From the NCBI GenBank assembly GCA_963921275.4, contig OZ001293.3, positions 1,024,001 through 1,088,000 of the forward strand: a stretch of DNA of 64,000 nucleotides. The letters run 5' to 3'. The stretch is from an uncultured Hormoscilla sp. Its GTDB lineage: Bacteria > Cyanobacteriota > Cyanobacteriia > Cyanobacteriales > Desertifilaceae. How positions within the stretch are numbered: the stretch's first letter is position 1; each line of letters opens with the position of its first letter. A program made the translations under genes and the position numbers. Below, one piece after another: positions 1 to 43,000 of the stretch. Under the pieces are notes generated by a model that saw only the letters and a list, made by a program, of their open reading frames with translations, ran no database searches and was not told the DNA's origin.

Positions 1-1165
1 TCTTTTGCCTCTAGGAGACAATCGATCAAAAGTAAGGTAGGATTTGCCGACTTTTCATATCTCTCGTAAATATCGCGTAGCTGTTCCTTGAGGCGGTGCA
101 TTTTACCTAGCTCGGGGATCTGACGAGTGAATTTATTTAATCTTAATTTCCTGTTCGTCGTTGAAATATTTCTCATTTTTAAGCAATATATATTTACTTT
201 GGTTTACCATCGATATTTTGGCCTTGGGACTTGGATTTTTTTGCTTCATTTTTACACTTCTTTCGACAATTGTCTAGTTCTTCATTCACCTGTTTAAACA
301 CATGAAAACGAGGGGCTATAACTTCAGCATTCGGCATCAACTCTTTTACTAAACTTTTATAGGGTTTCCACAGGTCGCTTGCTCACTTCTTCTAGACCAT
401 TTAAAACCTCATCACCCCATAATAGCAAGACTTCTCGTAAATCTTCTTGTCGCCGAGACGGGACTATTTCCATAAGTTTGCTATTAGAAATGTCACTGCA
501 TACTGCTACATAATTTCCTTGCCCTTTTACCAGCGCAATTTCATCGATACCTAGCTTTCTTAGTTCAGTTGACGGCGGTTCAATTTTCAGATTTCCTACA
601 TCTGACAGCATTTGTCGCGTTCAGATTCTTTTAAGTCATACCTTGTCGCTACCCAAACGAATATCCCTATTTAATACTTCTCGAACCACTTGTTCTTTCA
701 GTCTATTTGTATATTGGCGCCGCTCTGCTACATATTCTAATTTTTCACCCTTCGGGCTTTGAGCAGCAATCGCACTTGTCGGCGATTTATTTTGAGAAAA
801 ACTTTTTTTTCATTCCAGGGCAAATCCTTAATTAAATAAGTATGATTTTGATGCAATCGCCGAGGATGACATATAGGACAAATTGCTTCTTGTTTTTCGG
901 CCTCAATCGTCATAATTTATTCTGTTAAATGAGGCCGATAACTTTCACCCCGGGAATGTTTAACAAGGTTGTTAGTATTTTATTATTCGAGCGTGCCATA
1001 AAATAAATTCCCCCTGTTTTTTCTAGAGAGCGCCAATATTTTCTACCATAACTAGACGATTAAAGTCAAACCTGATAAGGTTTTCCGGTTTTCGATCCCG
1101 GACGTTGAGCCGACGTTGATGCACCCATTCAATACCTATTTTAGCATACTAGATTGAGAAGAGCC
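1..1165 (-). mobile_element. ISL3-family IS, transposase broken into fragments; runs off the window start
   Basis: Fragment LGIDEIALVKGQGNY is an ISL3 motif; element end reads GGCTCTTC on the minus strand at 1165; many stops and frameshifts. Confidence 0.85.
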
Positions 1166-1407
1166 GGAATTATTTACGAGACCACGATGGTCTTGCTATC
1201 CCAACTCGGAACACTCATGAATACGTCATCAATCAATTTCTGAATAGTCCCGATCTCGATCGTCAAGAGATAGGAAGCAGCTGGAAGCGTCTGAGGATTG
1301 GTCGCAATCAAGCGGATTATGATGATGCATTTGCTGATTTACCGATTGTAACTAAGAGGTACTTAAAGCTAGGATCCAAAATAATTGCTAAGTTGCAGAG
1401 TATTTGA
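1166..1407 (+). pseudogene. HEPN-domain protein, C-terminal remnant cut by ISL3
   Basis: Manual translation (one frameshift) RNYLRDHDG...THEYVINQF...RLRIGRNQADYDD; RNxADY is HEPN-like. Confidence 0.55.
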
Positions 1408-8883: not shown

Positions 8884-9007
8884 TATCTTAATATCAGCTG
8901 AGGGTATTAGCCGCTCCTGTCACTTTACACATATAATTGAATATATTTTCATATGTGTAAAAATCAGAACTCTCGGTCGGTAAGGGCACTTCCAGAGCTA
9001 CCACTTC

Positions 9008-9143
9008 TGTGTCCCTCGGGGCGAGGTGTATCCTGGGGCGAGGTATGTCTCGGGAGCGCTAATCGCACAAAAGGGGACATACAGAGCGCTAATTGCACAT
9101 GCATGGGAGACACTTCGCGCTAGTCGCACTACCCAGGATACAC
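9008..9143. repeat. Nested cluster of diverged hairpin elements related to the 45-bp family
   Basis: Three left arms, then three GCGCTA(A/G)TYGCAC loops with right arms; GTGTATCCTGGG/CCCAGGATACAC perfect IR. Confidence 0.6.
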
Positions 9144-9297
9144 GGCCCTCACCCGTTCCCAGGCGGGAGCCTCTTAACGAGGGGTGGAGCTAGACAAACC
9201 TTCGCCCGCCTGCGCGGGCTAGATTATCTTCTTGAGATGCTCCCAACAGAAGGGGCGATCGCCAACTCTTGACTGTCGGTCTATTAAGAAAACTTGG

Positions 9298-20882: not shown

Positions 20883-21020
20883 AGAGTGATAGGGTGGGCA
20901 ATGCCCACCTTTCTTTCTATGATAATATATCAATAGGTTAGTTCTAGGATCTGTCCCCCACAAGCTGTCGAACTCATGTTAAACTGCTAGCAGCAGCGCC
21001 TCCTGGGAGCACTATTCGTA

Positions 21021-21605
21021 CTACCCAGTAGACATTGCTTTGGCATATTCGACAAAAACATCAAAGTAGCGGTCTTCTTTAAATACACCCGTGTCCAACA
21101 GTTCAAATTCTAACCTGCGGCTTCGATGTCTCCTGGGAGCACTATTCGTACTACCCAATAGACATCGATCGCGCCTTTGATTCTCTTCGACCAACCAATC
21201 ATAAGGATAAGCCCCAAGGGGATATTTGTACAGACCCTTCATATAGGAATGAGTTGGGGTACTGTCAAGATATCAATAATAGTCTTTAACGTTCTCCCCA
21301 TGATTTCCTTGACAGGAAGTCAAGCCAAATGTCCGTTCTTTCAGCATGGGGTCTTTGCCATTCCAGAGGGCAATCTCGAAACACAGTCGCTGGTGGTTAT
21401 CAGAAATTCTCAATATCCCATCTTCTCCCCAGCGATAAGCGCGGTAATGGGATTGTTCGTGGGCAAAATAGTCCCAAGCTGCACCGTCAGGGCTATAATC
21501 TTCCCGCACCGTTCCCCACTGTCGTTCGCTTAAATAGGGACCCCAACGTTTCCAATAAGCTTGGCGGTTTCTGTCTGCTTCTAGTCTTTTTTCTTCCTGA
21601 GTCAT
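21021..21605 (-). pseudogene. MGH1-like glucosidase, N-terminal remnant
   Basis: [39 protein letters not shown]; truncated at a hairpin-element remnant. Confidence 0.85.
21121..21165 (+). repeat. 45-bp hairpin element inserted in a HIP1 site
   Basis: CTTCGATGTCTCCTGGGAGCACTATTCGTACTACCCAATAGACAT; removal leaves G|CGATCGC. Confidence 0.9.
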
Positions 21606-21612
21606 GGTTTTG

Positions 21613-21925
21613 TCAGTTTTCCCTTGTTACTGTTTGCAACTTAGGGGGATTAGGTAGCGATCGCCAAAAGGGCTTATAAGACAAATTCAACCTCTGACAG
21701 CGATAAGCCCCTTCAGGAATGCCGATATCCGCCGGAATCAATTCCCCCATTTTTTCTGGTAAAAGACCTGTTTTCGGTAGTCCTAGGGTCATCGTCCAAC
21801 GCCCTTTCATAAAATCTCCTGGAGCCTCTCCCGTAGTATAATCGACACCTGATGGAACATCTAGAGATAAAATGGGCGCCTTTGTAATATTTGTCCAGTT
21901 GATTAATTCCCGTGCAACTCCCCCC
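21613..21925 (-). pseudogene. NAD(P)H-hydrate epimerase (YjeF N-type), C-terminal fragment
   Basis: Manual translation APILSLDVPSGVD...TMTLGLPKTGL...ADIGIP. Confidence 0.75.
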
Positions 21926-21958
21926 TCGTCATACTTGGCAACCTGTTCTACGACAAGT

Positions 21959-22078
21959 TTAGCAACCTATTCGCTCATGGGACCCTGACGCCACATCAAC
22001 TACATAATGCTGTACCCTCAAAGCTGCGCTCAAGGTTTGGGCTAAAGCTTCGTCATCCTCCACTAAAAAAAGTCTCAT
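21959..22078 (-). pseudogene. Response regulator, N-terminal stub
   Basis: MRLFLVEDDEALAQTL...YVVDVA, then breaks off. Confidence 0.7.
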
Positions 22079-22090
22079 AACCTTTGCTCG

Positions 22091-22135
22091 ATGTCTCCTG
22101 GGTAGTAAGAATATTGCTCCCAGGAGACATCGAAA
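22091..22135 (-). repeat. 45-bp hairpin element (intergenic, after ftsZ)
   Basis: ATGTCTCCTGGGTAGTAAGAATATTGCTCCCAGGAGACATCGAAA. Confidence 0.88.
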
Positions 22136-22163
22136 ATGCTCAATCCTGAACCCTAGGCAACAG

Positions 22164-23441
22164 CTATCTTGGTGGACGCCGCCGTTGCAGAAAATCAGGA
22201 ATATCCAATCCTGGTTTGTTTTCTGGCTCCGTCGTCGGCCCTGGTCTGGTTCTGGTAATTGGTGGCACCGTTCGCGGTTCCACATTAGCTACTCGCTGTG
22301 AACTAACTGGTGGGGCTTGCACTTCACCAGTGAAACCCGTAGCGATCACAGTAATTCTGACTTCACCCTCAACGCGGTCATCAATCACCGCACCAAAAAT
22401 AATATTGGCGTTAGGATCTACCGCTTCGTAAATCACCTCAGCAGCTGCATTCACCTCATGCAAAGTCAGGTCACTACCGCCAGTAATGTTAAAAACCACC
22501 CCTTTAGCACCAGAAATCGAGGTTTCCAGCAATGGGGAAGAAATTGCGGCATAAGCGGCCTCACTAGCTCGGGATTTGCCCGAACCGCCTCCGATACCCA
22601 TCAGGGCCGAGCCAGCATCTGCCATTACCGCTCGGATATCGGCAAAGTCTACATTAACTAGACCAGGAACTGTAATGATATCGGAAATCCCTTGTACCCC
22701 TTGGCGTAGAATGTCATCAGCCACGCGAAATGCTTCTTGGACTGGGGTCTGTTCTGAAATCGCCGATAATAGCTTATTGTTCGGGATGATAATCAGGGTG
22801 TCTACCCGGCTTTTCAAGGCTTCAATACCTTCATCGGCTTGGCTCGTGCGACGCCGTCCTTCAAAGGTAAACGGGCGAGTCACTACCCCCACTGTCAAGG
22901 CTCCCATTTCCTTTGCCACTTCCGCCACGATCGGGGCTGCACCGGTGCCCGTCCCACCTCCCATGCCAGCCGTGATAAAAACTAGGTCTGCACCTTCTAA
23001 GGCGATCGCCAGTTCTTCCCGAGACTCTTCAGCTGCCTTTTGACCGATCGCCGGATTACCACCAGCCCCCAGTCCTCGGGTCAGCTTTTGTCCTATTTGC
23101 AGGCGTCTGGAAGCTGCTGAGTTTACTAATGCTTGGGCATCCGTGTTGATTGTCCAAAATTCTACACCAGCAACTTCGCTAGCGATCATGCGGTTAACAG
23201 CATTGCCGCCACCCCCACCAACGCCAATCACTTTGATTTTCGCTATGCTACTGGGCACTATATTGTCATTTAATGGTTCTTCTGCAAGCCGGCGGCCATC
23301 TCGCGACTGGGCCATTTGGAATCCAGCGTTGCCAAATGGGTTGGCGGCGTCCACTGCCTTTGAATAGGTAGATTTCTTTTCGCCATTGGAGCTTATATTA
23401 GTAAGCGGTAGCTGAGTCTGATTAGTAGGTGTCATCGGCAA
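22164..23441 (-). CDS. ftsZ: Cell division protein FtsZ
   Basis: [23 protein letters not shown]-terminal LDIPDFL; start may be the ATG at 23435. Confidence 0.99.
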
Positions 23442-23625
23442 TTCAGTAATGTCTAGTCAATGACGCTGGTATGAGCGCAGCAGAAGACGGCGGTTTATGT
23501 CACATGGTAGCCTAAGGGCCACGGCATATTCAGCCAACAGTCTCTCAGAGTACTGTCACTTGACCTGCATTATATGCTATTCTAGCGTGCCTGTCAAGTT
23601 ACAGGTAAGTTCGGTTATGTGTATT

Positions 23626-24429
23626 CTATTTTACTGTATCTGACTTCATTTGAATTGAAGGTGAGGCGGGATTGGTGAGGTCAATGTAAGCAATTTGGCT
23701 AGAATTTATCTGTGCTGGCAGCTGTTGCATTTGAGCTAGAGTCAAAAGTTGAGTGGAAAACTGCGTTGACATTGAGCCAACATGAACCATCCCGAGCTGT
23801 GTGTTCAAAATTATATTTCTGGGGTTTTGCCAATCTATTGTCAATATTTTCACCGGACAGCGGCTGATTGCTTGATACACTGCTTCCCAGTGAGGTTGAT
23901 ATTGAGCCGGTGAACCGATGACTGTGAAGTTGGGTAATGGAAATGACCCATTGACATTAGTATAGCTGTATTTTGGCATCAACTCCCCCTGTGAGTCTAG
24001 TAATCCTAGCATCTTTGGCTGTCCTGCTTCCTTAACGGCGATCGCCACTGGCTCTCGTTCGAGTACCTCGATTATCAGCCTGGGCGGTAACAGATGGCGA
24101 CTGACTGTTGCACTTGCGATCAGGGCTTTTGCGGACAGCCCTCTAGCAATCTCTTGGGGTTGCAGCCGAAACAGGGACTGGGGATAGTCGATCGGTAGCG
24201 CCTTACGAATCGCCGACCTTGATAGCAATTTATTGCCGGCGATCTCCACCTGCTCTGGTTGACGGATCACCCAACCGGGCTGGGCGATCGCCCAGACTAC
24301 ACCGCCAGCTATGCCGCTGACAGCTACTGTGCGCCAGAGGGTCTGCAAAATTTTTAGACGCCTCGCTTGTCGCAATTTTTGACGCCGATGAGCCAATTGA
24401 GCTTGATATACATCAGGGATGATTGTCAT
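23626..24429 (-). CDS. ftsQ: Cell division protein FtsQ/DivIB
   Basis: Basic N-terminus, TM helix, POTRA domain, YIDL; immediately upstream of ftsZ; start approximate. Confidence 0.88.
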   Translation of the reverse strand: MTIIPDVYQAQLAHRRQKLRQARRLKILQTLWRTVAVSGIAGGVVWAIAQPGWVIRQPEQVEIAGNKLLSRSAIRKALPIDYPQSLFRLQPQEIARGLSAKALIASATVSRHLLPPRLIIEVLEREPVAIAVKEAGQPKMLGLLDSQGELMPKYSYTNVNGSFPLPNFTVIGSPAQYQPHWEAVYQAISRCPVKILTIDWQNPRNIILNTQLGMVHVGSMSTQFSTQLLTLAQMQQLPAQINSSQIAYIDLTNPASPSIQMKSDTVK

Positions 24430-24622
24430 CAATACGCGCGGCCACATGCTTCTAGCTTTGGGAGCTATCCTATGTTATAATTATAAGGGATAAAACAGGA
24501 TAGTTAGATTTTACGGCACGCTGCGCGAAAAATCGGCTCGGCTCATCAATAGAAATATCATGCCCAGCTGGAGAGCTTTTAAGTTATAGTTGTAAGCAAA
24601 CTAACAATACCAGAGTACAGGT

Positions 24623-26404
24623 ATGAAAAAGTTTTTAGTTCTGTGCTTGTTTATCTTGGGGCTGTCAATGGTCCTGTTAAACTTCAAAGGTCTGGCCAGA
24701 TCGGGAGAGTTTCAGTCTATCGTACTGGACTTTCGGGAAGAGCGAGCGGGCCAGATAACTGAGCAGGTGTGGGCGATCGCGGATCGATACGGGGTCACCC
24801 CCAAACTCAACAGCGAGTTCTCAGATGCGGACAATGTCTATATTGTAGAGGGCGATCTGGCATTGCTGAAGGCCTTGAGAAGGTCCGAACTAAAGGATTA
24901 CACGGAATACATCGAGCCTAACTACGTCTACCAGACTAGCTTAGTACCCAACGATCCGGAATATCCCAAACAGTGGAATCTTCGCAGCATTAACATTGAA
25001 CCAGCTTGGGATGAAACTAAGGGGAATGGGGTGACGGTCGCGGTGCTGGACACGGGCATCAGTAGAGTTCCTGACTTAAAGGAAACGAAGTTTGTCCAAG
25101 GTTACGACTTTGTCAACGATCGCATCGAAGCATACGATGATGTCGGTCACGGTACCCATGTTGCTGGTACTATAGCCCAATCCACCAATAACGAGTATGG
25201 CGTGGCTGGCATCGCCCACGAAGCCAAACTCATGTCCCTAAAGGTGCTGGATACCAGTGGCAGTGGCACGGTTGCGGATATTGCTGAAGCGATCAAATTT
25301 GCCGCCGATCATCAGGCGGATGTAATCAATGTGAGCTTGGGTGGCGGTGGCGAAAGCCAACTGATGAAAGAGGCGATCGATTATGCTCACCAAAAAGGCG
25401 TGACGATCGTGGCAGCAGCTGGCAACTCGAATCAGAATGCTGCTAGCTACCCCGCCCGTTATCCCCATGTCATAGGGGTGGCGGCGATCGGTCCAGCTGA
25501 GGAAAAAGCCCCCTACTCTAACTTTGGAGCTGGCGTGGATATCTCCGCCCCCGGTGGGGTGATTACAGAAAACAGTTCTAGTGGTGGGATTCTCCAAAAT
25601 ACGATCGATCCACAAACTGGCAAACAGATTTTTGCTGCTTACCAGGGCACTAGCATGGCCTCTCCCCATGTCGCCGCTGTGGCAGCTTTGGTGAAATCAG
25701 CCAGCGTAGAAAACCCTGATGAAATCCTAGAGATTCTCAAGCAGTCCTCCAGGAAAGTGGCAGAAGACCCACTTAATCACTTTGGCGCAGGTCATCTGGA
25801 TGCGGCAGCGGCTGTTAAACTCGCCTTGCGAGGACAAATTAATTTTCGGGATTTCTTCTGCTGGTTGCGAGATAATGGCTATCTCAATCCTGGCTTTTGG
25901 ATAGATAGCGGTGCCGTAGCACTCCTGCCCAAGATTGCGATGGTCTTGGGTTCCTATCTGCTAGCATGGTTACTGCGGTATTATTTCCCCTTCGGCTGGA
26001 GTTGGTCCCTGGCTACTGGTCTGGTTGCTGGCAGCAGTGGCCTATTCCCACTACGGGGCTTTTATCTGTTCGACCTGCCGCAATGGCCGTTCCGGATGAT
26101 GGGCAGTTCCATTCCCGAACTGGGTAACGCAGTTACTGGCAGCAGTTTGTTAAACCCCCTGTTTGCCAGTATCCTCATCCCAGCTGTGCTCGTGCTGTTG
26201 CTGCTGGGACATCCTCACTGCAAATGGTTTGCCATTGGCACAACTCTGGGGGTCGCTAGCTGTTTGGCAGTGAATGCTGTTGTAGACCCAGGGATGTTAT
26301 GGTTGGGTGCTGGCATTCCAGCCCGTCTCTTCTTGCTGGTGAATGCTCTATTATGCTTTGCACTGGCTCGTTTGGCAGTGAAAGGAGAAGGGAAGCTGGC
26401 ATGA
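24623..26404 (+). CDS. S8 subtilisin-like serine peptidase with C-terminal membrane domain
   Basis: VAVLDTG, HGTHVAG, GTSMASPHVA catalytic motifs. Confidence 0.93.
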   Translation: MKKFLVLCLFILGLSMVLLNFKGLARSGEFQSIVLDFREERAGQITEQVWAIADRYGVTPKLNSEFSDADNVYIVEGDLALLKALRRSELKDYTEYIEPNYVYQTSLVPNDPEYPKQWNLRSINIEPAWDETKGNGVTVAVLDTGISRVPDLKETKFVQGYDFVNDRIEAYDDVGHGTHVAGTIAQSTNNEYGVAGIAHEAKLMSLKVLDTSGSGTVADIAEAIKFAADHQADVINVSLGGGGESQLMKEAIDYAHQKGVTIVAAAGNSNQNAASYPARYPHVIGVAAIGPAEEKAPYSNFGAGVDISAPGGVITENSSSGGILQNTIDPQTGKQIFAAYQGTSMASPHVAAVAALVKSASVENPDEILEILKQSSRKVAEDPLNHFGAGHLDAAAAVKLALRGQINFRDFFCWLRDNGYLNPGFWIDSGAVALLPKIAMVLGSYLLAWLLRYYFPFGWSWSLATGLVAGSSGLFPLRGFYLFDLPQWPFRMMGSSIPELGNAVTGSSLLNPLFASILIPAVLVLLLLGHPHCKWFAIGTTLGVASCLAVNAVVDPGMLWLGAGIPARLFLLVNALLCFALARLAVKGEGKLA

Positions 26405-26622
26405 GCATTAACGTCACTGGCAAGATCGAACGCAAAGGATTTGGTCCGGGCACTTGGGCTCTGGTAACTGATGAAACTACCTATGAACTTAAAGATGCCC
26501 CGGCTGAGTTATGCCAAGCCGGACTAAAGGTCAAAGTTGCTGGTATTGTCCGAGATGATGTCATGACTTTGGCTATGATTGGTCCGGTTCTGGAAGTTAA
26601 CTCCTTTGAATTGTTGGAATAG
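26401..26622 (+). CDS. Small conserved hypothetical protein
   Basis: MSINVTGKIERKGFGPGTWAL...; ATGA overlap with the S8 stop codon. Confidence 0.8.
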   Translation: MSINVTGKIERKGFGPGTWALVTDETTYELKDAPAELCQAGLKVKVAGIVRDDVMTLAMIGPVLEVNSFELLE

Positions 26623-27469
26623 TGGAGGTAGGGGCAAACTCATCTTATTTTTGAGATGAGTTTGCCCTGGAAATCATCCCCGGTATGGTTGTTAGTGCTC
26701 TTGGGTGTGGTCAAAAGTAGTTGATATCCTGGCAAAAAGGATCGACTCGGGCAGATTACAGCGTAGCGAACGTAATACGAAAATAATAAGTAGTATATGT
26801 AATCATTAGTATTACAAGGGCGGGAGCTGCTTATCAACTGGTTAAATAGTCAGATATGACCTTTTCTTCCCAACTGGTTTTGACCGCACCCAGTGCTCTT
26901 GTATATTTAGCCCCTTGGCTTTTTGCTCCCAATTAAGCAAAAGGCCAGAATATTGAATAATTTCGTATCGTAATTCTATGATGATTTACGGAATTCCAAG
27001 AGTTTTCCGATGGCGAGGTAAATAAATTTGAAGTTTTATACTATAACCTTCAACCTTGAACTTTTATACTTCATCAGTCAGACTTCATCATACTTTCTGA
27101 GGAGATAGAAGTCGATAGCTGAGCAAAAAACCCTCAGTCTATCAGCTGGGGGAGATAAATCAGGGTGCATCTACCATTCCTTTGTTCTCGGGTTTGCCAC
27201 TACCATCCGGATAAATTTTAGCTCGATGTCTCCGCCGTGTCTCCGATGTGCTCTGCGCGCTCGCGGTAGGGTAATTTTTTGGGGTGCATATAAGAGCAAC
27301 TTTTTGGAGTGCTAATCTTATGGGAAGGCGTAGAAATTGAGACTAAATAAAGCTGTTAACGGGAATTGGTCAGTTGCGTAGGGCGGGCGGATCGCCTGCC
27401 CGTCAATTGTCAATTTTGAATGCAGCACGAAGCCTCGATTTGAGAAGCAAGCAGGAGTGCAGGTGAAGT

Positions 27470-30199
27470 GTGACTCAAGAATTTCATCTTTCTGTGACCC
27501 CGGTGGGAGCAGATACCTATTTAGTGCGGACGGAACAGGTGGCTCGTGGCGTGCCACTGGCAGAAGAGCAAGTTGTCTGGCCAGTTTCTGATTGGTTAAA
27601 TCGGGCTCGTCAACTCTATTTAGACCCAATACAGGGCTGGCTAGAGACCCCTGTATTATCAAACTCAGAACCCGCTCTCCCTGTAGCCCCCTCGGGGGCA
27701 CGACCTCATTTATTGTCTCTGGGTCAGCAGCTCTATGAGGCTTTGTTTCAGGGGACTATTCGCGATAGTTGGCTGATCGCTGGGGTGCTGGCCCAGGACC
27801 GGGGCGAAAAGCTGCGGCTGCGGTTGGGACTGAAAACGTCCGATCGCGTAGCGTGCGCTCCGCGCAATCGATGTCTCCTGGGTAGTACGAATAGTGCTTC
27901 CAGGAGACATCGAAGCTGTTTGGCTCGCTTGCCTTGGGAGGTGCTCCATGATGGCTCTCGCCCTCTTGCTACTGGCACGGATGTGGTGTTTTCTCGCTAT
28001 CATCCGGTACATATCTCTTCATTTAATGGCTCTTCCGATCGCGAGTTATCGGCAGATCCCTTAAAGATTTTAATGGTGATCGCGGCCCCGAGCGATCAGG
28101 AAACTCTGGAGCTGGAACGGGAAGCCCGCAATTTGCAAGCGGAACTGCAACTGGCGAATGGGTCTGTTGGCCAAATTCAACTGACTATCTTAGCTCAGGC
28201 GGACCGGGAGCAATTGACTCAAGCCTTGGAACAAGGGAAATATGATGTTTTTCACTACGCGGGCCATAGTAACCTGGGGGTGTCTGGGGGAGAGATTTAT
28301 CTGGTCAGCGGCAGAACTGGTCTGACGGAAAGGTTAACTGGGGACGACCTGGCGGGGTTGCTAGTTAATAATGGTATCCACGTAGCGGTGTTTAATTCCT
28401 GCCGCAGTGCTGATGGGGTGGCCGAGAGGGGCGATCGCAATTTGGCAGAAATCCTAGTCTTGCGGGGTATTCCGGGGGTGTTGGCCATGGCCGAACGCAT
28501 TCCCGATCAAGTGGCCCTCACTCTCAGCCAGCTGCTTTACCGCAACCTCAAGCAGGGCTATCCGATTGATTTGAGCCTGTCTCGTGCTAGACAGGGACTG
28601 ATTTCTGCTTACGGTTCTCATCAGCTGTACTGGGCTTTGCCTATCCTTTACCTCCAGCCTGGGTTTGACGGTTGTCTTACCTCCAACGGCTCCCGAGAAT
28701 GGGATTGTCTGTCTGCTGAACCAGAAGATCAAATGTCCGATGGGACGATTCTGCCAGATGGCGATCGCACCAAAGAACTTGGCTTATACCAGGAGGCGGT
28801 CTCTGGCAAGGATAATGATTTACTGGCTGACAACAATTTAGGCTTGACCTTATATAGTCAAGGACCTATTCATGATGCGATCGGGGTCAAGCAGCTAGCT
28901 GCTTCGATGTCTCTTGGGAGCACCTCGTTCCCAGGCTCTGCCTGGGAACGTACTACCCAGGAGACATCGCTAGCTAATCTGAATTTTGCTGATGCCCATT
29001 ATAACTTGGGGGTGGCTTTTTACGAACAAGGACAGCTCGAACAGGCGATCGCCTCTTACCTCAAGGCGATCGAAATTAATCCTGACTTCGCTGATGCTCA
29101 CAATAATTTGGGCATAGCTTTCTATGAGCTGGGACGCATTGATGAGGCGATCGCCGCTTACCAGCAGGCTCTTGTAATTGACCCCCTCCACGGTAATGCT
29201 AACTATAACTTGAATCTCGCCCGCCTGTCTGGATCCAGACTCTCAGTTGCTGCGCCCACTAAGAGTCTGGATCCTCAAGCAGAACAATTGTCAGCTGTTC
29301 TGGAGAGTGGGAATGAGAATTTATCTCAAGAGCAAATCTCAATTGAGAGTAAGTTTTTGAAATGGCTGTGCTTGGGCATGGGGGTAACTGCTTTATTTTT
29401 GTTCTTCGGGTTGTTTCGCTGGCAGCCTAGTTCCCGGTTGGACCCACTACCTCCCTACCTGGATCCCCCTCCTGCTTCGATGTCTCCGGAGAGCGCTAGG
29501 AGCACTACTTCGGAGACATCGAATGCTAATTCTGACTCTTCTAATGATAACATAAATATTACAGATCGCGCCGCTCAACTTTTCCGTGAGGGTAAGATCG
29601 ACCTCGGGTCAACTGAGGTGGAAAAACTCTTAGACTCGGGCGTGCTCAACTTTGCTTTGGCAGCGATCGCTGCCGTGCCCAAAGACCAAATTAATCACCC
29701 TCGCATCAGTTATCTTCGGGGCCGACTGGCATGGCAGCAGATCCAACAAGGGAACAGCAACTACAGCTTGGACGATGTGCGACGTTTCTGGGAATGGGCC
29801 GCCAAGCAGGAAGGGGATAACCCTATTTATTACAATGCTCTTGGTTTTGCTTATTATGCTCTTGGTAATCTGGATCCAGCTTACTATAGCTGGATCCAGG
29901 TACTGGAGTTGATTAAAAATTCCCAACTACCTGACCAAAAAACACAACAAGTTTGCCCTGTTAATCAAGATGGATTGACTGCTTGTGCTGGGTTAGCTCT
30001 TGTGCTTTTCAAATCTGCCCAGAACCTACCCCTCGACCAACAGGATCCTTTGCTCGATCGGGCTCAAGCCTTGCACCAGCAGGTAATCCAGGCCGATCGG
30101 AGCAATTTTCAGCCCTTGGCCTTAGCTAAAAATAACTGGCTCTGGACCGAAACCGCCATCGCTGATTGGCGATCGCTATTTGTTGAGAATGAGAATTAA
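27470..30199 (+). CDS. hetF: HetF-like CHAT-domain/TPR protein carrying several in-frame repeat insertions
   Basis: N-terminus QEFHLSVTPVG...YLVRTEQVARGVPLAEE; HYAGH and FNSC CHAT dyad; TPRs; TM segment. Confidence 0.85.
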   Translation: MTQEFHLSVTPVGADTYLVRTEQVARGVPLAEEQVVWPVSDWLNRARQLYLDPIQGWLETPVLSNSEPALPVAPSGARPHLLSLGQQLYEALFQGTIRDSWLIAGVLAQDRGEKLRLRLGLKTSDRVACAPRNRCLLGSTNSASRRHRSCLARLPWEVLHDGSRPLATGTDVVFSRYHPVHISSFNGSSDRELSADPLKILMVIAAPSDQETLELEREARNLQAELQLANGSVGQIQLTILAQADREQLTQALEQGKYDVFHYAGHSNLGVSGGEIYLVSGRTGLTERLTGDDLAGLLVNNGIHVAVFNSCRSADGVAERGDRNLAEILVLRGIPGVLAMAERIPDQVALTLSQLLYRNLKQGYPIDLSLSRARQGLISAYGSHQLYWALPILYLQPGFDGCLTSNGSREWDCLSAEPEDQMSDGTILPDGDRTKELGLYQEAVSGKDNDLLADNNLGLTLYSQGPIHDAIGVKQLAASMSLGSTSFPGSAWERTTQETSLANLNFADAHYNLGVAFYEQGQLEQAIASYLKAIEINPDFADAHNNLGIAFYELGRIDEAIAAYQQALVIDPLHGNANYNLNLARLSGSRLSVAAPTKSLDPQAEQLSAVLESGNENLSQEQISIESKFLKWLCLGMGVTALFLFFGLFRWQPSSRLDPLPPYLDPPPASMSPESARSTTSETSNANSDSSNDNINITDRAAQLFREGKIDLGSTEVEKLLDSGVLNFALAAIAAVPKDQINHPRISYLRGRLAWQQIQQGNSNYSLDDVRRFWEWAAKQEGDNPIYYNALGFAYYALGNLDPAYYSWIQVLELIKNSQLPDQKTQQVCPVNQDGLTACAGLALVLFKSAQNLPLDQQDPLLDRAQALHQQVIQADRSNFQPLALAKNNWLWTETAIADWRSLFVENEN
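27871..27915 (-). repeat. 45-bp hairpin element, in frame in hetF, nested in a 24-nt repeat
   Basis: Encodes [15 protein letters not shown]. Confidence 0.9.
28902..28967 (+). repeat. 45-bp hairpin element with a 21-nt longer loop (66 bp), in frame in hetF
   Basis: Loop contains CGTTCCCAGGCTCTGCCTGGGAACG; related sequence near 9153. Confidence 0.88.
29475..29519 (+). repeat. Diverged 45-bp hairpin element, in frame in hetF
   Basis: CTTCGATGTCTCCGGAGAGCGCTAGGAGCACTACTTCGGAGACAT; compensatory stem changes. Confidence 0.85.
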
Positions 30200-30371
30200 A
30201 AATTGAGAATTGCTTCGAGTATTCCCTCGTTCCCTGTCTCTGGCAGAGAACGCGATCTTGAGGCTCTGCGGACAGTCAGATATCCACGGGAATATCTGTA
30301 GTTGATGCCACTTGATAAAAGACAAAGTTACTGTTACAATATTTAATAGGAGAGAGCAGGAGTTAGTGAGA

Positions 30372-30598
30372 ATGTCAGAGAAACTAATAGCCGACTTGAC
30401 AGTAGACGAACTCAAAGCTTTGATTGCAGAGGTGATAGACGAGCGCATGAGGTACTGGCCAAAATTTGAGCCAGTGGTAGACAAAGTGGCTTTGAAGAAA
30501 ACTTTGGAGTCGATCGACAGCCATATGTGGACACGCTGACGCTACCACCAGGAGCGCGCTCGACGCTGGAAATGTTACGTGAGGATAGAGGCAGATAA
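30372..30598 (+). pseudogene. Putative antitoxin (disrupted)
   Basis: MSEKLIADLTVDELKALI...; tail STLEMLREDR lies beyond a stop; overlaps the PIN gene start. Confidence 0.6.
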
Positions 30599-30995
30599 TG
30601 GCAACTTATGTAGTTGATACCAGTGTAGTGTTCAGCGTTTCATCATAGAGCAATACACAGGTGCGGGTATTGTTGGAGCGGATGCATCAAGGCGATCAGT
30701 TATATATTCCTGAGTTTTGTACGAGCGAGTGCGTCAAGGTTTTGTGGAAGAATGTTCGCTTTCAAGGACTGCCACAGACAGATGCAGAGCAATTTATTGA
30801 TGAACTGTTGGCTCTAACGTTTCAGATTGTACCAGTCAAGTATCTACTTTTGCAGGCTTTGCAAATTGGCTTGACTCGTCAATTGGCAGTGTACGATTCC
30901 CTTTATATTGCTTTGGCTTTAAAGCTGAATTGCCCATTAATTACAGTAGACGATCGTTAAGCAGCGGCGGCGGCAGAAAACGGTGTTACCCTAGT
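30598..30995 (+). pseudogene. VapC/PIN-domain toxin (frameshifted, premature stop)
   Basis: MATYVVDTSVV...AVYDSLYIALA...LITVD. Confidence 0.8.
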
Positions 30996-30998
30996 ATG

Positions 30999-31833
30999 CT
31001 ATCGCCGCCCCAGTAGCAAACTAATACCTACAAGAGCAAAAGTCAATAAGCCAGCCGTAGATTCTGGTACAGACTTGGGAGAGAAGACAACCTTACCAAA
31101 AATCTGGACATTAATATCTGAGGACTTGTTCCACCCGTTGCCATTGCTATCGACGGTCCCCAAGAATGTGCCCCTCGCATCAAATTCTAGAAATTGATTG
31201 TCCGCACCTTCCTGGGGCGAACCACTCAAGGTAGCGTTGGCAGCGTGGATGTAGGCAGGATAGAAAAAGTCTTGCCCTGGTACTTGACCCCCGAACACCA
31301 AAGCGATATTCTTCTCCACCGGCGATCTCCCAATTGAGATTGTTAAAATCTACTTGCCAAATATTAACTTCCTCACCAAAGTTGTTGTAGTTGGCGCCAT
31401 TGGAATAGGTGACTTAGGTGAATGTCACATTGCTGTCGTTGATAAAGTTGTCAGTCGTTGCAACTGGCGATATATCACTGCCCGACCTATCACCAGTGAA
31501 AAGGGTAACGCTTTCAAACCATTCTCCCAAATTGGCAGGGTCACTAATAGAAAGACCGGGTACTATCCAAGTGCGGATCCTGTCGATCGCATAAGTTTCG
31601 CCAGTTGTTCCTATAGTGAAATCATCACCATAGAATTCTTGGCTATTAACACCGGTGTCCCACCGGATATTAGAGCGGTTTGCGTCATTCCCGTTGAGGT
31701 TTTCTGCTGGCAGTCCCCGTGAGAACAAAAGGGCCCCATGAGCTGGCCCTGTGCTATCGGACAGTACAACTCCAGCAGCGGCGATGGTGGGGACGACTGT
31801 TGCGAGCGCTATATTTTTCCAATTCCTGACCAT
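30999..31833 (-). pseudogene. PEP-CTERM sorting-domain exported protein (broken)
   Basis: Signal-like N-terminus; C-terminal VPE + TM helix + RR; split over two ORFs. Confidence 0.75.
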
Positions 31834-32183
31834 GTTCAAAGCTCCTGAAAAAGATTTTTTACCGCAAAAGATGGTGCTGGGGTGTATATTACGGGAATCT
31901 ATGTTAAGTATTAGAGACTGATCTGTTGGAAAATCAATATTGGCATCAGTTCGGCCAGTCGGTGTGGTACCGGCGATCTTTGGTCAATTTCATCAATGAC
32001 TGGCTGAAAAAAGCTGACCGGGATTTTTACGTATTTATACTCAAAGAGCGGGCTCGCTCTAGTATTATAACGCAAGATTGATGTTCAAATGTCCTAGAAA
32101 AATTCAGTAATAATCACGATGGTAAATCGGGAGCAAGCAGTAAGAATGGGAAAAGGAATTTTGACGAAAGAGGCGGAAAACCA

Positions 32184-32959
32184 ATGAAGGGACTAGAAGA
32201 AACCTATTTGTTTTTACCAGACTTTCAATGGGATCTTTCCGGCCAGTTGCTGGGGCCATTATTAGAACCGGCGGCCCATCATCAGGGAACTGGCAGTGGT
32301 GGGGTGGTAGAAGATGAGTTGATGATACGGGAAACTGCTGCTCCGAGAAAATTAGATAAAATAGAGCGTCCCATTGGCGGCTTCAGTTCTGAGCCATTGC
32401 TGTCGGAGGAATTTGAAGAAAATTTAGCGAGCGCCAGACAGACCTCATAACAGGAAAAAAGGTCCGGCAAGTGCCGGTCAGACCTCGTGCAGAGGTTCTG
32501 CAAGTATCTAATGAGAAAGGGGGAATTGACGGACAGAATTATACTTTAGAAGTTAGCGCCCCTTCGATGTCTCCTGGGAGCAATATTCGTACTACCCAGG
32601 AGACATCGCCACCCAATCGATCGCCCCTATTTAGCTCGTCGCCGGTGGTTGAGGCCAGAGTCAATACAGCATATAGTTACATACCCACAGTTGTAGACCC
32701 TGATGGCGACTTCTTGACTATAAGTTTGGTTGATGGACCGGAGGGAATGGCGGTCAACCCCGATACGTTTGAGGTAACTTGGACGCCAACAAGCGACCAG
32801 TTGGGGATTGGTGATGTCACCCTGAGGGTAACAGATGGACGGGGTGGGACGGCAGAGCAACAATTTTTGGTTATGGCACTCATTGAAGCAGGAAATGCAC
32901 CGCCGACGATTGTATCGTCACCGAAAACGACGGTTGATCGAGGTACTGACTATGTATAG
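32184..32959 (+). pseudogene. 5' exon of the giant Ig/Calx-beta/RHS gene (frame broken near 32450)
   Basis: 32497-32959 is paralogous to 40112-40530 and continues at 37069. Confidence 0.85.
32562..32606 (+). repeat. 45-bp hairpin element, in frame
   Basis: Absent from the paralogous linker at 40171-40190. Confidence 0.93.
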
Positions 32960-33197
32960 GTGCGATTCGTTTAGCGTAAACTAACTTGACACAAGTCAAG
33001 GAGGGGGACCGCTACCGGGATTTCGTAAGTCCCGAAAACTTACAGGTGATGGTGGTGAAAGCCCGCCCCTCCAGGTGCAGGAGTGACAGCACCCTCCCCA
33101 CGGTAGCGATGGCATCAATCCGTGAAGCGGGAAGGAAAGGCGCTATGGCTGGGAGCCTAGACCGGTCATCGTCGAGCAAGTAACTATGATGAGCGTA

Positions 33198-34032
<835 letters not shown>

Positions 34033-34394
34033 AAGCGAAGGTTTGCAACGTCGTAAAGCCTATCCAGTGTAATAAGGCTGATACACTGGCCCAAAAAGGG
34101 AAAGGATACTGGTCATTGGCGGATGTATACCCGACCAATAAGCACTGACAATAAACCCGGCGTAGAGAACCCGTCTAAGGTTACGACCAATCATCTGTAG
34201 GAACGAAGTAACCCGGTTGTAGCACTCTCCATCACCGGTCGATAGATAGAGTAGCCACCACAGGCGTAACATCTGCTCTCCGGAAGGCAGGACGCAACTG
34301 GGGGAGATTGAGTGGAGAAGCAAATGCCTGTCTGTAATGGATAGGATAAGCTGACGCCCTCACGGTCTCGTCAATTGTGAAGTTGTAAGTAGTA

Positions 34395-37062: not shown

Positions 37063-37068
37063 TTTAAT

Positions 37069-40000: not shown

Positions 40001-43000
40001 ACCCACTGACTTACGAGTTATTATCACCACTAGAGGGCATCTCCGTCGATAGGGATACGGGGATTTTAACCTGGAGGACGACAACATCGGACATCGGCAC
40101 CCATTTGATCGTTCTGCAAGTATCTGATGGCTTTGGGGGGATTGACCGACAGAATTATACTTTAGAAGTTAGCACCCCGCCACCTAATCTACCGCCCCTA
40201 TTTACCTCCCCACCAATAGTTGATGCCAGAGTTAATACAGCTTATAGTTACATTCCCACAGTTATAGATCCCGATGGCGACTTGTTGAGTATAAGTTTAG
40301 TGGACGGTCCGGAAGGAATGGTCCTTAACCCCGATACTTTTGAGGTAACTTGGACGCCAACAAGCGACCAGTTGGTAATTTATGATGTCACCCTGAGGGT
40401 AACAGATGGACGGGGTGGGATAGCAGAGCAAAAATTTTCGGTTCTGACACTCCTGGAAGCAGGAAATGCACCGCCTCTGATTGTATCGTCGCCAGAAACG
40501 AAGGTTTATCTCGGTGCTGACTATGTCTATCAAGTAGAGGCTGTAGACCCGGATGCTGACGAGTTAACCTATGAGTTAGTTTCCGGACCAGAGGGGTTAA
40601 CAATCGATCCCATTACAGGCGAAATTATCGGAACCTTCGATGCTATAGGCGGAGAAAAATCATCAGTTACAGTGCAAGTGAAGGATGGTCGGGGAGGCGT
40701 AGATACCCAAAGTTTTGACTTGAATATCAGCGCCAGGGGCAAAATTACAGGTCGTGTTGTCGAAGAGTTAGGAAATCAGGCGAAGACAACTATTGTTTAT
40801 TTTAAGGATTTTGAAAATGCTAAGGATTTATTAACTGAATGGTCAAACCCAGAGATAGCTACAGCTCCAATCAGTTCTCAGCAGTTTCTCGGAGAATACG
40901 GAGGTACATTTTATGAGGATGAACCGTCAAAGAGAAAAGCTACTCTTACACTCACCGACTTAGCAGAACACGATACGGTGACGGTCAACTTCCAATTATA
41001 TATTCTCAAATCCTGGGATGGCTATGCTCAAAGATTTCCCTGGAATGGTCCCGACTTCTGGGAATTAAAGGTCGGAGAAGAAAGCTTACTGCATACGCTT
41101 TTCAGCAATAACGAACAGTATAATGAGCCTCAACAATATCCTGGCAATCTGGGCGAAACACACCCCCCTCATCAGGGAGCTTCCGCAGTGGGAACTCTGG
41201 GATACACTTACTTTGGCAGAGATGCTACCTATGACCTGTCGTTGACATTTGCTCATGACGATTCAACTCTAGAATTGAATTTCCTAGGCGGTTCTAATCA
41301 AGAAATATGGGATGAAAGTTGGGGTTTAGATAATGTTGAGGTCCGAGTGAGTTCTCAACAACCAAAGGGAATCGCTAACGCCTTTGTTTATTTAGATAGC
41401 AATGACAACCGCCAACGAGATCCTGGGGAATTGTTTACTCAAACTGATGAGGAAGGTCGCTACGAATTTATTCTCGAACCAGGGGTTTATACAGTTGCGC
41501 AAAATCACCCTCTAGGTTGGACTCAGGTAACGCCAGAGTTGTCAGTTCATACTGTTACTTTAGAAGACGGTCAAACACTAACAGATTTAGATTTCAGTAA
41601 TAGTGGTAGCGAAGCTGAAAATGAACCACCTGTTTTGATCAGTACGCCTCCAACTGAAGCGGTAATTTGTCTGCCATTTCGATATCGCGCTCTAGCAGAG
41701 GATGGGAATGGAAACCCTTTAAGTTATGCCTTGTTAGTTAAGCCTTCGGGAATGGTTATAGATGAAGGGAGCGGACAGATTGTTTGGACTCTTACTGAAG
41801 AACAACAAGGAGAGACTGCGGTCATTATACAAGTCTCTGACGGTCAGGGGTTGACCGATATACAATCGTTTCAGTTGGGGGTTTTACCATTTAATACTTT
41901 ACCAGTTTTTACTAACCAGACAAAGGGGATAACAGCTAGAGAGAATCAACCGTTTGAATATCAGTTTCAAGCTATTGATGCGGAGGGTTCTCAAATCAAA
42001 TACAGGTTAGAAGGAGAACCGGTCGGGGTGACAATAGATACGGAAACGGGGTTAATTCAATGGACGCCTACAGATTCTCAGGTAGGGAGTCACTCTTTTG
42101 CCGTTATAGCTAGGGATGTGCGCAATGGAGAAGCTATCCAATTAGTAACTATCTCGGTGATGGGGTTGACTACTAATTCTGACCCTCTGATTACGTCTCA
42201 ACCTCGGGAAGGCGTGAAGTTGGGAAGTGATTATCTCTATCAATTAGAGGTGTTTGACCCCGATAATAATCCGCTGGAAATAACGCTGTCCGGCCCAATT
42301 GGGATGGAAATTGATGGGGATGGATTGGTATTCTGGCGACCCACTGCTGTACAATTTGGACCGAATGAGGTGGCGATCGCTGTCTCGGACTCCCTGGGAG
42401 GGGTTACCAGACAAGAGTTTACGATTTCCGTCACATCTCAAGATCCAAACAGTCCGCCGTCAATTACATCGACCCCGAGTTTCGGGGCGGTGGCGGGACA
42501 AGAATACGAATATAATTTGACCGAGACTGACCCGGATGGGGACTTGCTATTGTGGGAACTTACAAAGGCCCCGGCGGGAATGACGCTGGATGCTTTGTCA
42601 GGGTTTTTACACTGGACGCCTGAGGTCTCTCAGGTAGGAAATCATCCTATTGATATCCGGTTGTTAGATAGTCGCGGTGCCTTTACGGGTCAAGCTTTTG
42701 AAATTGATGTGAGGGGTGTAAATACTCCACCCATTATTACATCACCGCCAATTACCGCCGCTGCGGTGGATAAACCTTATGAGTATCAAGTGATAGCAAG
42801 GGATGCAGAAAATGATGTTCTGACTTATAGCTTGACCGGTGCAGTACCCGAGGGCATGACGATTAATAGCGCCACGGGATTGATTTCATGGACGCCGAAG
42901 AACTCTCAGGTAGGGTTGGAGAATGTGTCGGTGCTGGTCTCAGATAGTTTGGGGGCGATCGCTTCTCAAGATTATGGAATAATAGTAGAATCGGTGGCAG

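Follow-up and report, generated by a model that had tools for sequence, protein, structure and literature searches.

The small dispersed repeats (SDRs) of Nostoc punctiforme and its relatives, SDR1-8 of Elhai et al. 2008, are reportedly 21-27 nt long, and they are said to form hairpins with compensatory changes and to nest in their own kind. Palindromic elements of Rickettsia (RPEs) were reportedly described by Ogata et al. in 2000. The present analysis concerns a hairpin of about 45 nt that recurs in one window of DNA, the 64,000-nucleotide stretch C1:1024001-1088000 of the 7.03-Mb assembly of an uncultured Hormoscilla sp. (source genome G000; 47% G+C; 4738 sites of the highly iterated palindrome HIP1), and the family to which this hairpin belongs. 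Four congeneric genomes with 83-93% identical DNA (G001-G004) were used for comparison.

Several features of the known systems are important for this comparison. An excerpt of PMC4390886 states that SDR5 inserts exclusively within HIP1, between nucleotides 3 and 4, and an excerpt of PMC5861425 states that no SDR-like repeat was found outside Nostocaceae. Repetitive extragenic palindromes (REPs) are described in part of Di Nocera et al. 2013 (PMC3733652) as 20-40-bp stem-loops with GTAG (or CGTC) at one end as an unpaired tag; the same part mentions REPs inserted within palindromes, intragenic REPs and REP families without a dedicated transposase. REP and REPIN elements with REP-associated tyrosine transposases are reportedly also treated by Bertels & Rainey 2011. 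RPEs are presented in portions of PMC3184786 and PMC3733652 as palindromic repeats lying in frame in many protein genes, with no transposase known. [quoted passage not shown]

The hairpin family resembles each of these systems, and it is set apart from SDRs, SDR5, REPtrons, MITEs and RPEs by each defining feature that was tested. Like SDRs, it is a very small dispersed repeat of a HIP1-rich cyanobacterium, it forms a compensated hairpin without terminal repeats or target duplication, it can insert into HIP1 as SDR5 does, it nests in its own kind, it is present or absent between relatives, and no enzyme is known for it. Unlike SDRs, which were compared by their description, it is 44-46 nt long (with 42-nt and 66-nt loop variants) instead of 21-27 nt, its loop is conserved while its stem is free, and its host genus lies outside Nostocaceae, as judged by the grouping of its relatives. 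Unlike SDR5, it uses HIP1 only occasionally (4/63) and interrupts it between nucleotides 2/3 or 1/2 (copy 21121), not 3/4. The palindromic inserts lie in frame in many genes, including housekeeping genes, and are apparently tolerated, again with no transposase known, which is the behaviour of RPEs; however, RPEs have about 105-146 bp and encode 35-50 residues in an obligate intracellular alphaproteobacterium, while the hairpin measures a third of this, inserts into its own kind and is free in the sequence of its stem. With MITEs it has in common a non-autonomous nature, a hairpin fold, and empty and filled sites between relatives, but MITEs measure 70-400 bp and have terminal inverted repeats matching a parent insertion sequence (IS) as well as target-site duplications, none of which was seen for the hairpin. 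A preliminary description of the window, made from its letters, had likened the hairpin to Nostoc SDRs and RPEs and called it longer than SDRs; the comparison is apt. We consider it probable that the hairpins form a genus-restricted family of miniature, non-autonomous, SDR/REP-like insertions of 44-46 nt, which insert precisely and without duplication, nest in themselves, and are selfish DNA mobilised in trans.

The anatomy of the unit is simple. A 5' leader of 1-2 nt, usually TT, is followed by a 14-nt arm, a conserved 16-nt loop AGCRCTANTCGYACTA and a complementary arm of 13-14 nt. A structure-aware search of G000 found 251 hairpins, 185 of them simple and 66 composite (nested). The simple hairpins have loops of 11-17 nt, with exactly 16 nt in 169, while the loops of the composites span 22-138 nt and hold either more members of the family or small repeats of another kind. 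In the genome there are 186 occurrences of the loop motif AGCNCTAN(1-3)CGNACTA, in 143 cases with at least 10 flanking stem pairs, and counting the junction of the loop with its 3' side gives 617 canonical and 174 variant units. A discrete variant, in which TACCC is exchanged for AAAAG at the loop-arm junction, is seen in 107 copies, compared with 317 of the canonical form, and intermediate forms are seldom met with. The inner helix, read on the forward strand, always contains a C.A mismatch together with a bulged A; read on the reverse strand, these are a G.T wobble and a bulged T, and they follow GTAG immediately.

In the 169 copies with a 16-nt loop, loop positions 1-3, 5, 11 and 13-16 are invariant, and positions 4 and 12 co-vary (G-C in 151 copies, A-T in 13). 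The arms behave differently: 94 distinct 5' arms are found, while the 14-bp stem is Watson-Crick paired in 96.2%, compared with 71.3% when arms are shuffled among copies. These copies had been selected on 11 of 12 inner pairs, and an independent check of pairing was therefore made with 78 copies, five from the window and 73 from the four other genomes, chosen by their 22-nt core alone. In this set 14 of 18 pairs change on both sides, the double-change cells number 151 as opposed to 40 in shuffles (none of 500 shuffles reaches 151), and 93.3% of cells are paired, in comparison with 33-49% when the partners are slid. The conserved part of the element is the loop; the stem sequence is free but stays paired. 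At its gathering thresholds Rfam has no family covering any hairpin in the window, and at E up to 0.1 none covers the three top-scoring hairpin loci.

The family is found in one genus only, in which the named records are Hormoscilla. The loop pattern is present in all five genus genomes (157, 26, 50, 50 and 68 matches) and in none of 36 genomes that represent other genera within the family and the order. The same 78 copies served to build a covariance model, which likewise finds the hairpins in all five (at least 151, 142, 129 and 131 copies, and 57 in the fifth, with 150 candidates scored per genome); this was the genome-wide search advised in the preliminary description. In 60 other genomes of the order the model gives nothing save one 27-bit REP-like match. 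In a species-level collection all 74 matches listed belong to four Hormoscilla assemblies. Three viral contigs raised a possible phage link, which was rejected, as they carry the bare 18-nt core without arms and are chance matches. A literature search found no published description of repeats in Hormoscilla.

Within the window the 45-nt consensus with up to three mismatches recovers the copies at 21121(+), 22091(-), 27871(-) and 32562(+), and it has no match in 100 dinucleotide shuffles. Repeat finding adds the copy at 29475, both halves of the copy at 28902, and a partial copy at 20991-21037. With the unfiltered covariance model, scores of 60-67 bits are obtained for the five plain copies, 42.6 bits for the partial one and 40.7 bits for the nested one (28899-28971). 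Thus all six full copies and the partial copy that had been listed beforehand were recovered by these three approaches. The list was correct but incomplete: it missed a degenerate, multi-level nested composite of the 'CACAAAAG' variant type at 9005..9150 (+), which is a weak match to the covariance model.

The comparison of single copies with their orthologous sites is informative. The copy at 21121..21165 (+) is a G000-specific insertion of a full 45-nt hairpin inside the HIP1 site GTGCGG|CGATCGCG, and the site is empty in G002, G003 and G004. It lies in a GH63-like gene, which in G000 is a frameshifted and shortened remnant. The 5'-truncated copy at 20991..21037 (+) sits at the junction of a deletion of about 2.4 kb, which took out most of this gene; G002, G003 and G004 are continuous here. 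The full intergenic copy at 22091..22135 (-) is found 29 nt downstream of the stop codon of ftsZ (22164-23441, minus strand); its site is empty in G001, while the copies in G002, G003 and G004 have decayed through deletions.

Three further copies are in-frame insertions in a HetF-like CHAT/TPR gene of 909 residues (27470..30199, plus strand; Pfam CHAT and TPR). The first, at 27871..27915 (-), is a full copy antisense to the gene and encodes 16 residues. Its site is empty in G001 and G004 and filled in G002 and G003, where a second hairpin is nested in the loop. It adjoins a separate 24-nt insert GCGTAGCGTGCGCTCCGCGCAATC at 27846..27869, found in G000 only among the congeners compared. The second, at 28902..28967 (+), is a 66-nt sense copy encoding SMSLGSTSFPGSAWERTTQETS, in which the centre of the loop, TATT, is swapped for a 25-nt hairpin CGTTCCCAGGCTCTGCCTGGGAACG of a second family (28923-28950 region). 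This site is empty in G001 and in G002 holds a 42-nt form with the loop AGCACTCGTACTA. The third, at 29475..29519 (+), is a full sense copy with the loop AGCGCTAGGAGCACTA, and it encodes SMSPESARSTTSETS. It is full-length in G000 only, while G001-G004 keep differing deletion remnants at the site. This copy, for which compensatory stem changes had been noted earlier, falls in the common CCGGAG/CTCCGG stem subfamily. The claim of read-through in both orientations is borne out by this gene, with the copy at 27871 antisense and those at 28902 and 29475 sense.

The last copy, at 32562..32606 (+), is located in a 162-aa Ig-domain gene fragment (32471-32959) that is cut by a group II intron at 32960. 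The fragment was compared with the giant open reading frame (ORF) of 2938 residues at 37150-45966. The alignment has a single gap of exactly 45 nt, GTTAGCRCCC|45 nt|CGCCACC, without duplication and with a one-C ambiguity in its placement. The paralogous empty site GTTAGCACCC|CGCCACC lies at 40170..40185 (+) inside the ORF, with the junction at 40177/40178. The internal empty-site control proposed in the preliminary description is therefore sound. As a separate observation, the 162-aa ORF duplicates, in diverged form, an internal part (40090-40600) of the large Ig/Calx/RHS-like ORF, and since it ends at the intron it may be a duplicated exon fragment carried by intron movement. Group II introns interrupt the Ig-domain fragment over 32960-37100, with GTGCG starts at 32960 and about 33199, domain-V matches at 33954-34031, 35810-35886(-) and 36991-37068 (six in the whole window), and a reverse transcriptase-like ORF at 34395-35849. 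The arrangement looks like nested introns.

Across genomes, 74 copies of the four other genus genomes were mapped onto G000: 42 sites are filled, 11 split or empty, 13 matched by one flank, and eight unmatched. Ten sites that are filled in other genus genomes are empty or rearranged in G000. At the clean empty sites the inserted length is 44 nt (L039, L052), 45 nt (L066/L090, L089) or 46 nt (L087), so that the unit measures 44-46 nt and not always the 45 nt first given. The right flank of these sites is usually G, and no target duplication is found at the empty sites compared, beyond a possible GC in L039. The mobility proposed earlier is thus supported by precise presence and absence at orthologous sites in four congeners, and the family's presence does differ between species of the genus.

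The target could be narrowed down with 63 non-nested copies that have a TT leader. In 49 of them this leader is preceded by C, and the right flank is GATCG in four, in comparison with a background of 1.2%; one of the four rebuilds a full HIP1. The usual target is therefore C|G(A), and HIP1 is an occasional one. At most sites the target G completes the stem, the insertion having occurred between C and G. The earlier description placed all insertions just 5' of a CG that extends the stem; this holds mostly in the form C|G, and only the target G, or CG, pre-exists. Its four targets of the type G|CGnnnGC are confirmed for 21121, 27871, 28902 and 29475, except that the 'GC' of 27871 belongs to the separate 24-nt insert of G000. 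Its one perfect HIP1 target is indeed that of 21121.

Insertion into the element itself also follows a pattern. In the composites the loop of the host copy is broken directly after AGC. On the left side, 18-nt units (AGC plus arm) are stacked before the innermost loop, and right units of 25 nt (arm plus TAnTCGCACTA) after it, up to 4-5 deep. A second type of nested junction occurs at the edge of stem and loop, with a net gain of 45 nt. In one further case a 24-nt HIP1-associated repeat is present inside the hairpin loop of a G000 copy and absent from the orthologue (L081).

The same junctions bear on another explanation, in which the hairpins spread by recombination, that is, by capture as filler at double-strand breaks (e.g. 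at HIP1-like sites), by ectopic gene conversion, or by template switching at palindromes. It would account for the truncated copy that lies exactly where the 2.4-kb deletion was joined; another copy with the same rare arm variant is only 130 nt away (the unusual TAGACAT arm is common to copies 20991 and 21121). Block changes (TACCC to AAAAG) and loop inversions at orthologous sites, insert boundaries that vary by 1-2 nt, and the modest enrichment of GATCG on the right flank also agree with it. However, most insertions are complete, with the same ends, at unrelated sites, and without flanking homology or an accompanying deletion; self-nesting occurs at a fixed position in the loop, and one conserved loop is common to hundreds of copies. 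We therefore consider spread by recombination improbable.

The effect on genes was assessed with a six-hypothesis codon-usage model applied to whole ORFs. In G000, 69 of the 185 simple copies lie in read-through ORFs of at least 150 codons, as do 1832 of 3000 random 44-nt windows. With ORFs of at least 100 codons the number is 114, and in 77 of these the in-frame codon usage is the best of the six hypotheses. By gene calls that are a codon-usage approximation and not an annotation (4775 ORFs, 65.5% of the chromosome), 65 of the 185 copies are genic, about half of the number expected at random. The other 120, which are intergenic, do not cluster behind gene ends (21% lie within 150 nt of one, compared with 19%). 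Of the six frames of the element, five have no stop, and each of these is in use, with 26, 16, 11, 9 and 7 copies in ORFs of at least 150 codons; the sixth is used by none. The leading frame is hydrophilic, SMSPGSAxRTTQETS, with the general form S-M/V-S-P-G/E-S-A-x-R-T-T-Q/P-E-T-S. Copies whose length is a multiple of three and that have a stop-free frame are tolerated in genes and read as about 15 residues. The proposal that the element writes 15-aa peptides into proteins is correct for many genes, although two of the six window copies do not do so (22091 is intergenic and 21121 lies in a pseudogene).

The host proteins include well known enzymes. Among the 20 largest host ORFs, 17 have a Pfam match; these include phosphoenolpyruvate (PEP) carboxylase, SNF2 helicase, adenylate cyclase, topoisomerase I, a sugar-nucleotidyl transferase/phosphomutase fusion, an ARC6/Ftn2-like division protein, GlyS, Omp85, an AmiC-like amidase, CbiG-CobJ, NFACT and a chorismate-binding enzyme. 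The alignment of topoisomerase I with a mycobacterial homologue of solved structure (6pcm) is unbroken except for 15 extra residues, VSPESASRTTQETPP, directly after EAHEAIRP. The 909-aa HetF-like ORF matches NCBIfam HetF with 736.6 bits, while the curated cut-off is 1200. Eighteen HetF-like proteins were aligned, and none of the ten from other genera carries any of the three peptides, so that the sharing of peptides by orthologs, which had been named as grounds for rejecting an insertion, is not seen in these ten. The other eight are the G000 protein and seven close relatives that are 78-94% identical to it, of which the two named ones are Hormoscilla. In these eight, site 1 is filled in three, site 2 in four, and site 3 is complete in two. 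The filling of site 1 does not follow overall identity, and this site was therefore hit more than once or lost precisely. The peptides are real additions to the proteins, and as far as the alignments go they are probably neutral passengers in loops and linkers. In an RNA-library run, contigs of a related strain keep the site-1 hairpin and lack the 66-nt insert of site 2, having 17 other letters at that place; these are strain differences and are uninformative on transcription or removal at the RNA level.

The orientation of the in-frame copies, 54 sense and 23 antisense, could be taken as a sign that an RNA copy is inserted by reverse transcription, through the reverse transcriptases of the many group II introns of this genome. 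The six domain-V matches and the intron reverse transcriptase ORF in the window, as well as the one 5'-truncated copy, would fit with this. On the other hand, the copies have no A-tails or intron-like boundaries, they occur in both orientations in untranscribed-looking DNA, and the intergenic ones have no link to gene ends. A sense bias is also expected from the choice of frames that are stop-free and encode tolerable peptides. Insertion from RNA is accordingly very improbable in our estimation.

The fate of copies after insertion was followed at orthologous sites. The automatic comparison of the 42 filled sites contained paralogues (31% flank mismatch), and strict flank identity was therefore required, which left a small sample of ten sites, seven of them with equal length in both genomes. 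In these seven, the stems differ by 19 one-sided and 2 paired changes, and both paired changes are part of one block substitution. Pairing is thus not restored in place, and the compensated diversity of stems must arise in the lineages that found new copies. At L020 and L042 the loop is inverted between orthologous copies. After insertion the copies decay, through one-sided mutations, deletions between short repeats and sometimes inversion of the loop.

This result is also important for the question of whether selection maintains the hairpin for a structural or regulatory role (as a terminator, to stabilise mRNA or to bind a protein), with stem covariation due to selection at each locus. The very strong covariation, the conserved loop and the copy just after ftsZ are what such a motif would show. 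The strict orthologues, in which pairing is not kept in place, contradict it; a third of the copies lie in coding sequence in five different frames, the intergenic ones have no preference for the ends of genes, sister species have lost copies bit by bit through deletion, and no Rfam family matches. A selected motif is therefore hardly credible.

If the hairpins are mobilised in trans, the enzyme should be sought among the transposases of the genome. G000 has two Y1 (HUH) transposase genes, both flanked by repeats other than the hairpin. The first is IS200-like (NCBIfam, 58.9 bits), is flanked by arrays of GTAGCCCTAC... repeats and occurs in each of the five genus genomes. This gene (C1:242260-242700) is followed by a tandem array with units of about 70 nt that contain GTAGCCCTACyCTTTAGGGTTGGGGCGA, a REP-like family. 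The second matches the NCBIfam REP-associated tyrosine transposase (RAYT) with 43.4 bits and is frameshifted; a GTAG REP is located about 320 nt upstream of it. In this RAYT-like gene (C1:1348433-1349000; L010, L097) the HUH motif and the catalytic-tyrosine region are in different frames, with the shift near ...EENV|. The shift could mean a pseudogene, an assembly error or a programmed frameshift; the G001 orthologue matches as the same two pieces.

Other mobile elements were also considered. A reading of the hairpin as an IS end was rejected, because in seven ISL3-like copies it is an internal insertion in the transposase ORF. These belong to a degenerate pseudogene family consisting of the window copy at 1-1170 (-), which has no hairpin, and seven paralogues on contig C1 of G000; their hairpins occur in two forms that differ by 5 nt. 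This result, together with six 1.8-kb TnpB elements without the hairpin, answers the earlier suggestion to look for it at IS ends. Neither terminal repeats shared with a transposase-bearing IS nor, at any empty site examined, a target duplication was seen. The element is a single symmetric hairpin, not the distinct left-end and right-end hairpins of the IS200/IS605 type, and it has no association with a Y1 gene. The earlier statement that no mobilising enzyme is evident still holds for the Y1, TnpB and ISL3-like loci examined.

The most concrete candidate is a REP-associated (Y1/HUH) tyrosine transposase, although this assignment of the enzyme is tentative. It leads to the possibility that the hairpin derives from the GTAG-tagged REP family of the genome, with the loop as the REP recognition module and the long arms as an added palindrome, and is mobilised by the RAYT. 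On the reverse strand the core of the hairpin is GTAGTGCGAnTAGCGCT, which resembles the GTAG REP GTTCGTAGTAAGCACTTTAGTGCTTC, a family with at least 202 copies in G000. The tag and the 3' half-stem are common to both, the best variant pair sharing GTAG and the half-stem GCGCT with a score reached by 2 of 5000 shuffles, and the same A-T to G-C covariation is found in the mini-stem of both families. REPs that are inserted in palindromes, intragenic or without a transposase are known from the part of PMC3733652 mentioned above. The likeness extends to a short, GC-rich, lineage-specific hairpin with hundreds of copies and GTAG in its core, some of them intragenic and read through, and, for the palindrome-embedded REPs, to a REP-like core flanked by a palindrome.

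However, the best pair was picked from 120 comparisons, and the commonest REP and the commonest core are alike at chance level (862 of 5000 shuffles do as well). GTAG sits at the stem-loop junction inside the 44-nt hairpin, within the loop, and is not an unpaired tag at the foot of the stem; the copies are not inverted REP dimers. The RAYT-like gene, besides its frameshift in G000, was found in only two of the five genus genomes with the query used, while all five carry hairpins, from 57 to at least 151. Unlike REP/RAYT systems, the hairpins are not enriched downstream of genes and flank no Y1 transposase gene, so that there is no REPtron, and about a third of them are intragenic (65/185), far above what 'extragenic' implies. 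Descent from the GTAG REPs thus appears possible but doubtful.

For the trans-mobilised hairpin family that we prefer, the following mechanism can be proposed. The element would move as a folded single strand, and an enzyme supplied in trans would recognise the conserved loop. On the reverse strand this loop has GTAG and then a 5-bp mini-stem with the G.T wobble and the bulged T. The stem would need only to pair, so that only foldable copies would found new copies; this might explain why the family contains so many perfectly compensated stems. A more radical scheme, which we regard as unlikely, is that the mechanism reads only the 16-nt loop and the pairing, and that in each round, by fold-back or by templating within the strand, one arm is rebuilt from the other. 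If this were true, it would explain together the 94 different but perfectly paired stems in 169 copies, the one-sided decay of orthologous copies and the self-nesting. The TACCC/AAAAG switch and the inversion of the loop would be by-products of the same reaction, and the family would represent a self-templating class of mobile DNA that is shorter than 50 nt and does not depend on any known family of transposases.

Several observations weigh against the proposal of a trans-mobilised insertion family. None of the enzyme loci examined has been identified as the mobiliser: the hairpin is absent within 1.5 kb of all 13 Y1 loci in six genomes (G000-G005), and it is absent from the six TnpB elements, their ends included. 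The orientation of copies along the chromosome (116 and 100) has no strand bias of the IS200/IS605 type. The inserted length and the leader differ between stem classes, and the nested junctions are 2 nt off the C|G prediction, with the GC of the host lost and a leader T in place of TT. The AAAAG/TACCC variant separates orthologous copies twice (L019, L043). Mobility is deduced solely from differences between the sequences of species, and the small strict-orthologue sample and the approximate gene calls noted above have to be considered as well.

Other small repeats accompany the hairpin. One of them is a second family of hairpins, CGTTCCC(n8-14)GGGAACG, 25-27 nt long and with 164 copies in G000, in the window at 28923-28950 and 30225-30252; its inner stem varies with compensation, and the loop of the 45-nt element often harbours it. 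Another small family, the third, measures about 24 nt, is built around GCGCTGCGCGCAC and has about 233 copies on contig C1 (e.g. 313747, 5697226), mostly in (C)GAT|CG HIP1-like contexts, and is polymorphic inside a hairpin loop between genomes (L081). At window position 28434, in the HetF-like gene, a palindromic insert is found that measures 27 nt in G003 and 24 nt in G002 and G004, while G000 and G001 are empty. These inserts (L001, L002, L003/L006) lie between HIP1 nucleotides 3 and 4, GCG|ATCGC, which is the SDR5-like position. The 24-27-nt families of G000 look closer to SDRs and are apparently the true SDR analogues.

A MITE-like unit of about 110 nt occurs in nine copies on contig C1 (4134035, 4752243, 4961544, 5431604, 6220612, 5863567, 3476088, 1676682 and 1530055). 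It consists of CCCGCC, a hairpin with an extended stem, GGGTTCAAACCC and AGTCGGTTnAAACCGACT, and its flanks are unrelated. A tenth pattern match at 2153026 did not align, and some copies also carry the second hairpin family. A reading of the 'group B' unit GGGTTCAAACCC as a tRNA was rejected, since ARAGORN found none in ten of ten copies and Rfam gave no match.

Just upstream of the HetF-like gene, a match to Rfam NsiR1 at 27123-27176 (-) with 50.1 bits (gathering threshold 39) is accompanied by a short tandem repeat at 27028-27083. Arrays of NsiR1 are located upstream of hetF in heterocyst-forming cyanobacteria. We take the genus of the named relatives to be non-heterocystous, for which reason this synteny deserves attention. 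Contig C3 of G000 (31,420 bp) has 17.6% G+C and no HIP1 site, while the chromosome has 47% G+C; it is probably foreign to the organism or an unusual extrachromosomal element. In the sequencing runs X2, X4 and X6 the contig depth over the hairpin bins (27834-27924, 29472-29562) exceeds the depth of the flanking single-copy gene by a factor of about 25-60. A high copy number would give this picture, and the assemblies of these runs break at hairpins.

On the question of how SDRs, REPs without a transposase and RPEs move, the Hormoscilla hairpins provide an unusually clean set of data, with hundreds of copies, a conserved loop and a free stem, exact empty sites in five related genomes, and nesting at a fixed position. 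A possible link to the GTAG REP of the same genome, which the hairpin resembles, is the best lead on the mechanism. The family extends SDR-like behaviour beyond Nostocaceae. It also indicates that essential enzymes, such as topoisomerase I, PEP carboxylase and GlyS, readily accept insertions of 15 residues, which is of relevance to annotation, to protein-family alignments and to the origin of new linker and loop sequence.

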